Part shown: positions 12,001-18,000 of the stretch, piece after piece
Layout of the letters: each line of letters starts with the position of its first letter
How positions within the stretch are numbered: the stretch's first letter is position 1
Source: a virus
Lineage: Duplodnaviria; Heunggongvirae; Uroviricota; Caudoviricetes
Reading direction: 5' to 3' (one strand)
IMG/VR virus record: IMGVR_UViG_2778261638_000003
Coordinates: 1-41,846 of that record
Length of the DNA: 41,846 nt
Position numbers: made by a program

Positions 12001-15000
12001 AACATCTGGTAAAGCCTTTCCTCAGCCAGCCGGTGTTGCGTTACCAGTACAGGAAGCGGCAACACAGGAAGAAATTAAAACAGATACTGTGGGGGACATT
12101 GTGCAGTCACTACCATCGTTCACTGAAACGCGAGCCAATGACCTGATTTTACCATCGCTGCAAATGGCAAACCGCGAACTGCGCCGGGCGAAAAGTCATG
12201 TCCAGAAGTGGGAGCGAGTCTGCGCCGCTCTGCGTGAGCTGAACAAGCACCAGGATATTGTCCGACAGATTGTCGATTCCTCCAGTCGTATTGTGTCGGA
12301 AAAGTGATTCCTGGGGAGGGCTTATGGCAAAAGTATTTACACAGGAAGAGCGAGAAAAAATTAAAGGGCAGATTGTTGATCTCGTACGCCAGAGCGGGCG
12401 AGAGACGTTACGACAACTGGAAGCTAAAATGGGGGCAACCAGATATCTGATAAGTATTCTCGCCAAAGAGCTGGTTTCGAGTGGTGAAGTATACAACTCT
12501 GGCTATGGGTTATTCCCGTCAGAACAGGCTCGTAAGGACTGGCAAAACGCCCGCAAAAAACTATCGAGGGCAAAGGTGAAGAAACCAGTTGTGGTTGATC
12601 CGGACCTTATTTGGTCATTACCAGACGGAGAAATACGTCGTTACGACAGGCGTCAGAACATAATTTGTCGCGAGTGCCGGAAGAGCGAAGCTATGCAGCG
12701 TGTACTGGCTTTCTATCAGGGTAATTTTCAGGAGGCGGTACTGTGAGTGAAATTAGCTATCAGGCTTCAATTACCGCTGGCATTCGCATCAAAGGAGAGT
12801 CGCATGGAAATAAAACCAGAAGATGAGTTAAGCAATATCGTTTTATTTCCGGTAAAAGAGGATGACCCACGTAATCAGGTTAATTTTCTTTATGAACCAT
12901 CGGAAAGACCATATTGTCATCACGCTTCTGTCCGGGTTGACGAAAAAGAGCGTCAGGTCCGCTGTAAAATCTGCGGTGCAGTTGTGGAGCCGTTTGACTG
13001 GATGCTCTCCGTGGCGAAAAGAGAAACCAGACTGGCAGATGATGTAAGGCTATTGCGCCAGGAGGAACAGGAAAGGCGGAAAAATATAGAAAAGTTAATT
13101 CAGATTGAGCGTAACGCGAAAGCGCGGATACGCAGGGCGACAAAATCCAGAACTGAATAAATAAATTTAGCGCTGTAAATAAAATTTAATCCTTAACCGG
13201 AGGGATTTCTGCACCCTCAGAACATCAGGAGGCCACCCGAAAGGGCGGTAATGAAAAATGACTGAATTAACCAAAGAATGGTTGCTGGAGTGAGTAATGC
13301 TGATATCGCCTTATCTGGTCTGGTTTCATGGGGCAGCCTTAACAGTTATGCCGCATGTCCTGATGGCTGGCAGCATCATTCCGGTATCGAAACGTCGTAC
13401 CGGTATTGCGGCGGCGAGACGTGCAGCAAAGAAACGCAGGAGAGCAAAGCGATGAAAAACCGTAAAGCAAAAATCCTATTAGTTCGCAGAAACGGTCCTG
13501 GCGTCTGGCAGTGGGTGAGACTCAGCAACCGACGGATGGGGTTAATGAAACATTACGGGATGATGGATTGTGGTTTTTGCAAAAAGCCCAGCGCGGCGCA
13601 AAACCGCTGGAAAAACCACTTGCGTACTAAAGGAGAGTGATATGGCTATTGCCGCAAGTTACACCATGCATCTCTATTGTGACTGCCGCCAGTGTACGGA
13701 AGGTGTATATCCAGTACCAGACTTCGGTGAATATATCGGTACGTCATGGGCTGGCTGTGCAAAAGAGGCACGTAAGGATGGCTGGCGAATAAGCAAAGAC
13801 AAAACACGTGCTTTTGCGCCAGGGCATAAAGTTTTAAGGATTAACAAATGACCACTATTACCAGAGAACAGGCACAGAAAATTATTGAAGCAGCCGATGA
13901 GGTTATTAGTGCGCTTGCCGGAACTAACGAGGATGTTCACCCTGGTAGCGATAACATGCTACGCCTGTGGGATGACCTGAATGACCGTTACGCGCCCCCT
14001 GAAGTTGTGCGTGAGCTGGCACGAATTGCACTGGCATCACTGGAAGCAGAGCCTGTAAGCCAAACTTACAACTTGCCAGAATTAATCGAAGGCATGGAGG
14101 TTTCCATTGATGTAAGCACTTGTGATGCGGATTTAGGTAATCGCTATTTCGGTACCGTAACCGAGGCGTTAGAACTTGATACAGCCAAGAATGGTTACAT
14201 CCTCCTAGTTCAGGACGCAGAGCCAAACTTCGATGTAAATGGCAACTCTCCGGTAATTCCGGATGGTTGGATAAGCTGTAGTGAGCGAATGCCGAAAAAG
14301 AATCAGAACGTACTTATTTCGGTGAATTTCGATAGTGATCTGGTTGAGCCGCTAATATGCTCCGCACGCAATACCGGAAGTACCTTTCGGCGAGGACAAG
14401 CAACGATTAAGCCGGGTAATGGCATTGAGCAGGCAACTCACTGGATGCCACTACCGGAACCGCCGCAGGAGGTGAGTCAATGACCTGGCCTGAAGCATTC
14501 ACAACAGTAGGAATTGCAATGGCGGTGGCGCTGGTGGTGTATTCAATTTGTCGCTGGGGATGATAATACTAAATAACCAGCCCTTCTGGGGCTGGCTAAT
14601 CATTTAGAACTGTTCATTGCCATCGAGGTTAGGTAGCATAATTTTTTCAATCAAGGCGAGAGCCTTTTTGTCCCGGTCAGCGAAGTATTTCGGGGCATAT
14701 TGCGGCAACCAAATATTGTTAAAATGTTCTTTGAAATCTGCTAAATATTCATTTGGGTACAGCCTTGCAGGGTATACGCGACCATCGGGATATTCATGGT
14801 CATAGGTAGGGAATGTTTTGGGTTCTACGTTTCTATTATCTCTTAACCATTGTGAAAATACTCTTCCTTGTGAAATGTCAGGAACCATTTTTTCTGGGAG
14901 TGTGTACCCTGCTTGTTCGAGAGGTGCAACCAAGTTGAATGTCAGTTCATTAAGAATAGAAAAGTGTGTGTGAGGAATTCTACTACGATTAACCATGTAC

Positions 15001-18000
15001 CGTTTTAAATGTACAGGCATTTCTGCTGTAGTTTTTTCCCCTGACATCCATTCACGAACCCATCTTGAAACTTGGACTGCAAATTTGGGCGATAGCCACT
15101 GCGCTAGATTAATAGCGATGTCAGGATGCACCCATGTCCCTTGGTTTTCAGGTCTTCCACCTTTAAATGATTGAATTAACTCCGATATGGGAATTCCCAT
15201 ATCGCGTGATAATTCGTCAAAAAACTCTTGAGTAGTTTTGAGTCTAGTGTAATCAGAGAGCAGTTTGCCCGCAGTTCTACACATTGATGTGGCGTTTATG
15301 TAACCATCTTTGGCACGTAAATGTATTATTTCGCCGTCAATTTCACGAGAAATCAAAGATAATTGAAAGGACGTCATTGAAAATTCCTTAAGTTGGAGAG
15401 TTCTGGAGCATTAAGGCGAGGTGGCAGTAATGCACCATCAGTTATCTTTTGATACTGACGCAATCGGGCCTGATGTGCAACGCCTTGCAAGTATGTAACT
15501 CATTGAAAACGATCGTTTTTATCTATTGACGTCAAATGGCAAACTGTCATTGTGCGGCTATGGCAAGTGGCAAATGCTTATAAATCATATGGATATAAAG
15601 AGTACAGAAAGAATTGTTTTCTCTAGGATATGAGTATGCGTCCAATGCTGATTGGTTGAATTTTGTTCTTGTTTTAAAGGGGGAGAGTTTAAAGTGTTGG
15701 CAGTGATGTATTGGATAGTTAGAATTGCTACGGGTGCTTGAGGCTGTCTGCCTCGGGCATGAACACCAAAGGCAGATAGAGAAAAGCCCCAGTTAACATT
15801 ATGCGTCCGGCAAGACGCTTAACATTAATCTGAGGCCACATCTATGCTCTGCATACGTAGATTAGCCTCTTACCGACCAAAAGGTCAAGGAGAAGCAGGC
15901 TATGAAGCAGCAAAAGGCGATGTTAATCGCCCTGATCGTCATCTGTTTAACCGTCGTTGTGACGGCACTGGTAACGAGGAAAGACCTCTGCGAGGTACGA
16001 ATCCGAACCGGCCAGACGGAGGTCGCTGTCTTCACAGCTTACGAACCTGAGGAGTAAGAGACCCGGCGGGGGAGAAATCCCCCGCCACCTCTGATGTGTC
16101 AGGCATCCTCAACGCACCCGTACTTACCCGCTTCGGCGGGTTTTTTGTTGTGGTGGATAAATTAGCTTTTTGTGTACTCTTTTAGCCGTAAGTCTTGAGA
16201 GACTGACTGTTGTAAATAGAATCGTGTTTGCTTAGTTAGCGCGCAGGGAGAAGAGGGATGGACCCTTCAGGGGAACGCTATTAATCTGGAAAATTTCTGT
16301 TTATGGATTTCAAGAAGTTGCGCAAAATTTTTAATAAAGATGGTCTCTATGCTGTGCGCGTTGAAAATGGGGAAATTATTAGTTGTTACTGCATTCATTG
16401 CTCACGGGCTTTGCAACAGCCTAGTGGGGCTATGTTAATATATCTCTTGAATGGGCATGTGACGGACGGATTTATGTTGCGTGAAGATGAATTTGTCACA
16501 TCATTACGGACATTAAAAGAAATTGGATTAAAAGCTGGCTTTTCTGCTTTTGAAGACGATTGAACTCATCTACAATTCAGCGCAGGGTTGACCCCCTGCT
16601 GAGTAACACCGTGCCACCGGAGAAAGCCGATGGCACATATACAACTGATCAAACATACCTCTTCTGGATTACTGCTCCCGGCAACACCGGAGAGTTGCGA
16701 ATTCTTGCATCAAATAAAAATAGGTGAGTGGATACACGCTGATTTTAAGCGCGTTCGTAACTACGCATTTCACAAGCGTTTTTTCAAACTCCTGCAACTC
16801 GGATTCGATTATTGGACTCCTGTCGGTGGGGCGATCACCTCTCGTGAACGAAAACTTGTGTCCGGTTTCGTTGATTATCTGTGTGACTCGGTCGGCCGGG
16901 AACATACGCCAGCCCTGAGTGATGCCGCAGAACAATATCTGAATACCATTGCGATACGCAGAACCTGTGATACGGCATTGCTAAAGTCATTTGATGCTTT
17001 CCGTGAATGGGTAACTATTGAGGCCGGATTTTACACCGAGCATTTTTATCCGGACGGTAGCCGTGGACGCAGGGCAAGATCTATCGCGTTTGCAAATATG
17101 GACGATACCGAGTTTCAGCAGGTTTATAAATCCGTACTGAATGTGCTTTGGAACTGGATCCTGTTCCGTAAATTTTCCTCTCCGGAACAATTCGAAAATG
17201 TTGCTGCGCAGCTGCTGGAGTTTGCGTAATGGTGGATTTGCGTAAAGCGGCTAAAGGCCATATGTGTACAGTCAGAATCCCCGGTTACTGCAATCACAAT
17301 CCTGAAACATCTGTGCTGGCGCACTACAGGCTGGCGGGGACGTGTGGAATGGCGATAAAACCACACGATATGCAGGCAGCGATTGCCTGTAACTCATGTC
17401 ACGATCTAATCGATGGGCGGGTAAAAACCAGCGATTACACCAAAGAAGAATTGCACCTGATGCATGCAGAAGGTGTTTTTCGCACGCAAGAAATCTGGAG
17501 AAATGAGGGATATTTATGATTTACCCAACAAATATCGGAAAAAGCGGGGAACATCTCCGTCTCGCAACACTGGAAAGTGTGTGGATTCAGGGAAAGTTAC
17601 GCATGTGGGGACGCTGGTCGTATATTGGTGGGGGGAAAATTGGGAGTATGTTTAACAGGTTGCTTGTATCGCACACAATGACGAAATCAGCTATCAATGA
17701 AGCACTGCGCAGTATGAAAAAATCGGGTATTGAAAAAGCTCAACTTGAAGCATTTCTGCTGGAAATTATTAATGGAAGGCAAAAGAGCTGGCTGGTGCAC
17801 TGTTCTGATACAGAGGCTTTGTTGATCGATAAGGTTATTGGTGAGGTGCTTGGTAAACATCCCGGATTAATTTATATCTTACGGCAGAGATATGAGGGGC
17901 ACGGTATGAGTAAGCGCAAAATGGCTACGCGTTTAAACGAAATATATCCTGAATGGTGTATGAGTACTTGTGAAAAGCGTATCTCTAATTGGTTGGCTAT

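Follow-up and report, generated by a model that had tools for sequence, protein, structure and literature searches.

A putative BstA-type defense moron with an intragenic hairpin, and a predicted small membrane-peptide gene at its border, in a Rac-like lambdoid prophage

Layout of the locus and limits of the insertion

The IMG/VR virus record IMGVR_UViG_2778261638_000003 (Caudoviricetes) was analyzed over positions 1 to 41,846, and this whole stretch is referred to here as the window. Its identity to a prophage in the chromosome of Escherichia coli (E. coli) MB07081 (locus L001) is 99.9%, and the RefSeq annotation of that locus outlines an early region of the Rac-like lambdoid type. Two convergent genes are the main subject of this report: a 27-codon open reading frame (ORF) for a predicted single-pass membrane peptide (14480-14563, + strand), and a gene on the opposite strand (14604-15377, - strand) for a 257-aa KilA-N domain protein, which carries a hairpin within its coding sequence (CDS). 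The small ORF begins with an ATG that shares bases, as ATGA, with the TGA stop codon (14481-14483) of the preceding DUF551 gene (13848-14483, + strand; Pfam DUF551 E = 2e-20, with the same annotation in RefSeq), and an AGGAGG Shine-Dalgarno (SD) sequence is read on the + strand 7 nt upstream of this start codon (14467-14472). The stop codons of the two convergent genes are separated by 40 nt (14564-14603).

The KilA-N gene is missing from four relatives, namely phages vB_EcoM-606R7 and Min27, E. coli E1316, and phiSTEC1589. BLASTN alignments showed that in all four the small-ORF stop is followed after only about 30 bp by the hok promoter's -10 box, TAGAAT, and 14564-15719 is therefore taken to be an insertion of about 1.16 kb, made up of a terminator, the KilA-N gene, and a 5' region (15378-15719, - strand). 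The terminator (14574-14598, - strand) was found both by a terminator scan and as an inverted repeat. Its sequence, TAGCCAGCCC-CAGAA-GGGCTGGTTA followed by TTTAGTATT, has a 10-bp stem with a T-rich tail on the minus strand and reads as the intrinsic terminator of the minus-strand KilA-N gene. Among the marks of a moron, presence or absence between exact flanks and a terminator of its own were seen, and a promoter on its strand was not found. The 5' region is common only to E. coli alleles of about 99% identity, and alleles of about 86% identity are homologous in the CDS only. One of the latter, in PhiR5_2 (86% identical), lies directly after cI and before N, the canonical position of BstA. Complete E. 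coli genomes carried the KilA-N gene in 147 of 5426 cases, with an intact CDS annotation in those listed.

A preliminary description of this DNA had proposed a 27-aa transmembrane-like peptide coupled to the DUF551 stop through an AGGAGG site, a KilA-N gene about 40 bp downstream on the other strand, and a moron-like arrangement. The ATGA overlap, the SD spacing, the 40-nt gap, and a strong Pfam match (below) confirm the first two proposals, and the third is supported by a self-contained opposite-strand unit at 14564-15719 that is absent from the four relatives. By its own account it would have been refuted by a small ORF lacking conservation and a KilA-N gene degraded to a pseudogene in relatives; instead, the ORF is conserved and the gene is intact.

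The KilA-N/BstA_C protein and its probable role

Pfam KilA-N (PF04383), a DNA-binding domain of APSES-type fold, matched residues 14-112 of the 257-aa protein (15042-15338, - strand) with a score above gathering (E = 4e-27). Nearly the whole protein (residues 1-254) matched PHROG 6287, 'BstA abortive infection system, replication inhibitor' (E = 5e-89), which is also matched by BstA-BTP1 (E = 2e-150). Other comparisons placed the resemblance to BstA in the C-terminal half: the PADLOC BstA model aligned with residues 118-238 (E = 3e-21; profile positions 147-272 of 292), BLASTP aligned residues 125-251 with residues 164-302 of BstA-BTP1 (32% identity, E = 3e-16), and hhalign of 21 family members against 20 canonical BstA proteins gave a probability of 97.9% (E = 3e-13) over residues 122-236 (14670-15014, - strand). 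This domain is PF26567, named 'BstA_C' in gene tables; its residues H138, D167, and H194 are invariant among the aligned family members. All close homologs in a large protein collection carry PF04383 and PF26567, whereas canonical BstA carries PF26567 alone. The AlphaFold2 model of the protein has a pLDDT of 89, and no fold match to the BstA_C domain was found in the PDB. Relatives are encoded in 369 IMG/VR viral stretches, and KilA-N/BstA_C homologs number thousands elsewhere. Judged from these sequence matches, the protein belongs to a sub-family of BstA-like, putatively defensive proteins that combines a canonical KilA-N domain with BstA_C. The same C-terminal module sets it apart from other KilA-N proteins, such as P1 KilA, the Bro-N/KilA-N family, and the fungal APSES proteins Mbp1 and Swi4. 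RefSeq labels the gene just 'KilA-N domain-containing protein', and because the PADLOC BstA model covers only a portion of the protein, standard defense finders probably miss the sub-family in most cases.

BstA, encoded by prophages, acts by abortive infection and blocks the replication of phage DNA; its gene usually lies downstream of the repressor, and the phage that carries it is protected by a cognate DNA element, aba, which in BTP1 spans -29 to +34 of bstA and has terminal CCCGCC repeats (Owen et al. 2021, PMC8585504). With BstA-BTP1, BstA-Ec, and BstA-Kp (PMC8585504) the protein described here shares a homologous BstA_C, a nominally KilA-N-type N-terminal DNA-binding domain, membership of PHROG 6287, and a single-gene, prophage-borne character, as well as a close homolog between cI and N. 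That homolog also occupies the slot of lambda rexAB. As in rexAB and other cI-adjacent or moron defense cargo, the gene is an accessory one, dispensable for the phage life cycle, placed with its own terminator between conserved phage genes; unlike rexAB, it encodes an unrelated protein and is inserted between the ea/DUF551 block and hok/sok. The explanation that we favor, and consider reasonably probable, is that a Rac-like lambdoid prophage has received a 1.16-kb moron encoding a BstA-type single-gene defense, and that the 27-aa gene is independent of it. By analogy with BstA, the protein would be made in the lysogen, its KilA-N domain would recognize the replicating DNA of a superinfecting phage, and BstA_C would block replication of that DNA.

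Several observations weigh against a BstA-type defense. Neither BLASTP nor hhalign aligned the N-terminal halves of this protein and of the tested BstA proteins, a canonical Pfam KilA-N domain here and a 'KilA-N-like' domain in BstA. The gene is not repressor-adjacent, being carried on a separate moron 5.5 kb away from the repressor, and no sigma-70-like promoter with at least 8 of 12 matches precedes it on the minus strand. No CCCGCC-type, aba-like terminal repeats occur around its start codon. Many family members in other phyla are found among ordinary chromosomal genes and not in recognizable prophages. Finally, a few C-terminal-only BstA homologs were named by Owen et al. (PMC8585504), and none of them was assayed. 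The protein further differs from BstA in its length (257 aa versus about 300), in its setting on an opposite-strand moron in a nin-like region with its own terminator, and in the covarying hairpin described below.

Two repeats in the moron were seen in the E. coli allele only. A 10-nt direct repeat, TCATTGAAAA, lies at 15374-15383, covering the KilA-N start codon, and at 15500-15509, and is only marginally unexpected; the palindrome TTGACGTCAA lies at about 15527-15536 in the 5' region.

The protein could instead be a DNA-binding regulator or a KilA-like host-killing factor with no role in defense, with BstA_C acting as a general effector or oligomerization module. This alternative, which we consider unlikely, accords with the APSES fold of the KilA-N domain, with a match to PHROG 129, 'transcriptional regulator' (E = 5e-25), with a BstA_C domain that has no known fold or chemistry, and with a family widespread outside prophages. 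However, anti-phage abortive infection is the sole experimental result on any BstA_C protein (PMC8585504), and the position of the close homolog between cI and N is a classic slot for defense cargo.

The preliminary description had leaned toward a DNA-binding protein of antirepressor-like or toxic character. Some proteins of the antirepressor type do contain KilA-N domains, a LoVEphage neighbor points the same way, and the repressor of this prophage (8671-9078, - strand) is a 135-aa helix-turn-helix (HTH) protein without an S24 peptidase domain; a repressor lacking a RecA-cleavable peptidase would need an antirepressor or other induction regulator, as in the Gifsy prophages. An SOS-controlled antirepressor of the Gifsy GfoA/GftA or 186 Tum type was rejected, as no LexA box (CTGT-N8-ACAG, at most one mismatch) occurs in 14300-16300, a range that includes the moron and its upstream side. 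The C-terminal domain is moreover BstA_C and not ANT, Bro-C, or KilA-C, and the same protein is found in integron cassettes and in chromosomal loci where it would have no repressor as a target. The homolog in the slot between cI and N, typical of BstA, counts for defense and against this reading, which we now regard as very unlikely. As a separate observation, the early region as a whole yielded no convincing LexA box.

If the gene is active as a BstA-type defense, it would represent an overlooked branch, present in many phyla and in the 147 E. coli genomes counted above, of a prophage defense family whose mechanism and self-immunity are unsolved.

A covarying hairpin within the KilA-N coding region

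An inverted-repeat search revealed a 22-bp perfect palindrome, CGATATGGGAATTCCCATATCG, at 15183-15204, which covers codons 58-65 of the KilA-N gene (DMGIPIS) and can form a 9-bp stem with a 4-nt loop; the RNA fold of this segment has a z score of -4.3. No other copy was present in the window or prophage, no Rfam family matched at this position, and the searchable literature yielded no description of a hairpin or palindrome within KilA-N coding sequence; the element seems to be undescribed so far. A stem with other arms lies at the same codons in homologs from Proteobacteria, Verrucomicrobiota, Bacteroidota, Planctomycetota, Nitrospirota, and others (loci L007-L086, L103, L176-L184, L266, L267, and L390-L469). 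Examples of such arms are CCGATGTCGG-AATT-CCGACATCGG, CCGAAACGGG-AATT-CCCGTTTCGG, and GGTCTATGGG-AATT-CCCATAGACC, and one homolog (L040) has a 34-nt palindrome at these codons. Codons 58-65 are the sole hairpin hot spot in the gene.

Covariation was evaluated on 101 distinct sequences. In a 12-bp stem, 64.5% of cells were paired, compared with 32-41% when partners were slid, and the covariation score was 0.296 versus 0.08-0.115, with 0 of 500 shuffles attaining the observed value. Among 150 distinct sequences, 37% had perfect stems of at least 9 bp, as opposed to 0.6% under a null that kept the protein sequence and the gene's own codon usage. The third-codon-position pair 60.3/63.3 covaries (GC in 81 sequences, CG in 25, AT in 7), and pairing within the stem leads to covariation of the encoded amino acids at residues 60/64 (M-I, V-T, T-V, A-A) and 59/65 (D-S, S-D, V-T). 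The central 4 nt show no covariation, and the element is therefore a stem around a 4-nt loop or spacer. Mismatches in the 150 sequences were 11 G.T versus 21 A.C, a ratio that is not decisive for RNA or DNA; G.T was not favored over A.C, and there was thus no sign of wobble pairing in a sense-strand RNA. RNAalifold gave no consensus structure for all 101 segments, because about a third of them belong to a hairpin-less clade; on a subset picked by an independent marker it recovered the stem, with compensatory changes at 7 of 7 pairs.

The hairpin-less clade, marked by the motif QTGLPEQQLIH, comprises Vibrio integron cassettes and Stenotrophomonas and Salinicola chromosomal loci. None of the 54 canonical bstA genes examined had a hairpin at the equivalent place, and the hairpin was also present in KilA-N genes with other C-termini (a Bacteroides LoVEphage, cyanophage PaV-LD, and two IMG/VR proteins). 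The idea that the hairpin is limited to phage-borne copies was rejected, as the genes around 22 loci with the hairpin are for the most part ordinary chromosomal ones, and the occurrence of copies outside prophages weakens a strictly phage-replication-linked, aba-like role. Separately, we observed that seven loci of Stenotrophomonas spp. (L031, L033, L038, L044, L045, L047, and L065) have hairpin-less KilA-N+BstA_C genes in the same chromosomal neighborhood, which suggests vertical inheritance of a domesticated copy.

In the AlphaFold2 model, helices at residues 47-60 and 64-67 are joined by G-I-P, and the hairpin may therefore encode the turn of an HTH-like element. As candidate roles, the hairpin could be an operator or self-recognition site within the gene or could act as a hairpin in the mRNA; it may also have no function and be kept up by template switching. 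A fuller form of the first would be that the hairpin is a portable cis-acting element that the protein or mRNA uses on itself, as an intragenic operator or an aba-like self-immunity site, and that its arms and the encoded HTH turn diversify together, giving each allele a private specificity. We offer this as a tentative proposal of low probability. Elements inside the CDS of a mobile element that travel with their gene are known from lambda ori in O, P1 oriL in repL, the pT181 origin in repC, and aba in BTP1 bstA, and the differing hairpin arms of close homologs here recall cognate specificity. In contrast to those elements, this one is a single hairpin and not a set of iterons, has copies outside phages too, and is only a candidate target of the protein.

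The template-switch account, in which 'quasi-palindrome correction' mutation copies changes from one arm to the other and the palindrome has no function, is improbable in our judgment. It is consistent with the concerted changes seen in both arms of close homologs (genes 90-92% identical elsewhere have different, fully complementary arms), with G.T and A.C mismatches being equally rare, and with erosion or loss of the hairpin in several lineages. It sits poorly with the lack of any other hairpin hot spot in the gene, with its retention across six or more phyla and in KilA-N genes whose C-termini differ, and with the excess of stems of at least 9 bp over the synonymous-codon null. The hairpin also imposes rare codons (ATA, GGA, ATT) in GC-rich genomes, as well as the amino-acid covariation noted above within a conserved domain, which again speaks against upkeep by mutation alone. 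If the proposal of a self-recognition element is true, the hairpin would give a structural handle on the unsolved BstA-aba self-recognition and would be a rare example of coevolution, via the genetic code, between a DNA or RNA element and the protein segment that it encodes. More generally, the hairpin could show how such genes are regulated or avoid self-targeting.

The 27-codon gene and the surrounding region

The product of the small ORF, MTWPEAFTTVGIAMAVALVVYSICRWG, has a mean Kyte-Doolittle hydropathy of 2.1 over residues 6-24. Copies of the ORF were found at 3076 places in 1612 of the 5426 complete E. coli genomes and in 94 phage records, Stx phages among them. BLAST alignments to the E. 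coli copies start at the ATG or 15 nt before it, a span that includes the SD, and end at the stop codon. The intact 27-codon form was present in 105 of 136 IMG/VR copies, an SD-like motif accompanied 135 of 136 loci, and in 115 of 137 copies the start overlaps, as ATGA, the stop codon of a preceding ORF that is 100 codons long or longer; the preceding ORFs come from several families. In 15 diverse copies, all of 27 codons, pN/pS was 0.30, and variable sites at codon positions 1, 2, and 3 numbered 11, 10, and 22. The general pattern of the peptide is M[ST]WP[ED]A, a hydrophobic helix, and RWG; divergent members retain the first two of these and are otherwise different in sequence. Given its conserved start, stop, and length, its coding-type substitutions, and the hydrophobic helix, the small ORF is a conserved, predicted small membrane protein gene, and by the same comparisons it is a separate coding gene that ends the ea/DUF551 block of many lambdoid phages. 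Its peptide would be translated through coupling to whichever gene precedes it. No match to the peptide was found in Pfam, PHROGs, NCBIfam, or PADLOC, nor to 14480-14563 in Rfam, and a literature search returned no description. With it, the gene set of lambdoid and Stx phages would gain a small membrane protein that is very common and unannotated.

Conversely, what is conserved could be a nucleic-acid element, for instance a recombination junction or the upstream operon's 3' end, with the small ORF left untranslated. Two caveats lend themselves to this view: the antisense frame is open too across the 84 nt of the ORF, with a similar pN/pS of 0.32, and codon-position bias is weak among 41 unique sequences (20, 17, and 21 variable sites at positions 1, 2, and 3). 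PGAP gives no annotation for the ORF, and variants with a premature stop recur (22 contigs). Against an untranslated element stand the fixed length of 27 codons, the conserved ATG, stop, and SD, the ATGA coupling to upstream genes from three or more unrelated families, homology that stops exactly at the stop codon, and the retention of M[ST]WP[ED]A and the hydrophobic helix in otherwise divergent members. We therefore consider the nucleic-acid explanation quite unlikely and treat the small ORF as a gene. The variants in question change W3 (TGG, 14486-14488) to TAG in two lineages, in 22 IMG/VR contigs versus more than 120 intact ones, and leave the remainder of the ORF undamaged (L005, L089, L470-L490); this recurrent change may reflect recent inactivation of the peptide or counter-selection against it.

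A type I toxin identity was rejected for the small ORF on account of its strong SD, its ATGA coupling in most loci, and the absence of an Rfam match over the ORF. Like Hok, TisB, DinQ, and Ldr, the peptide is short and prophage-borne, with one predicted transmembrane helix, and its gene adjoins hok/sok where the moron is absent; it differs in having neither a promoter nor an antisense RNA of its own, in its strong SD and putative coupled translation, and in lacking sequence similarity to Hok/Gef. A peptide-DUF551 fusion suggested by a cluster look-up proved to be a clustering artifact, consisting of 121-aa proteins without the peptide.

What follows the small ORF varies between loci (including L087-L098): hok/sok, opposite-strand ParDE/RelE-type pairs, DUF4222-xis-int, LysR, or the KilA-N moron. 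This variety identifies the small ORF as the marker of a cargo hot spot and not as a partner of the KilA-N gene, and position 14564, directly 3' of it, is on this comparison a recurrent cargo-insertion point. A functional partnership with the KilA-N gene was likewise rejected: the small ORF is about 10 times more widespread, and no such peptide was found beside KilA-N homologs in other genera. Their junction is present in 111 E. coli genomes, and the adjacency is positional, not functional.

On the upstream side, a mosaic boundary frequently lies about 15 nt before the small-ORF ATG. The last codons of DUF551 (…PPQEVSQ) contain the ribosome-binding site of the small ORF, and unrelated upstream proteins share a C-terminal …QEV(N/S/R)(Q/R) at 14455-14483 and homologous loci, because their last codons carry its GGAGG(T) ribosome-binding site.

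Beyond the moron lies the hokD/mok/sok type I toxin-antitoxin locus (15720-16146, + strand; Pfam HOK_GEF E = 1e-23), which is the ancestral right-hand neighbor of the 27-codon ORF. It includes mok (15844-16050, + strand), hokD (15902-16057, + strand), an Rfam sok match of 105.7 bits at 15732-15907, and a terminator at 16126-16141 (+ strand) found by the terminator scan. A promoter-like site at 15697-15725 (+ strand) has its -35 element, TTGGCA (15697-15702), in the moron, and the hok promoter is thereby split, with the -35 from the moron and the -10 TAGAAT from the conserved hok/sok unit. The sok promoter is directed toward the KilA-N gene, no terminator was detected between them, and read-through from it into the KilA-N gene is conceivable. 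A match to isrK, an Hfq-binding small RNA, at 16066-16146 is below threshold (33 bits versus a gathering score of 50) and overlaps the 3' end of hok and the terminator.

In the RefSeq annotation of L001, the early region runs in the order sieB, ydaF, HTH repressor, cro, ydaT, DUF1376, P, DUF1627, DUF977, DUF551, KilA-N gene, hokD, DUF1367, DUF1364, and DUF1133, followed by toxin cargo and lysis genes. The toxin cargo, whose labels were likewise taken from this annotation, is located at about 18477-19789 and 21566-22345 and comprises subtilase-family AB5 subunits (a binding subunit and EplA) and an 'enterotoxin A family' gene.

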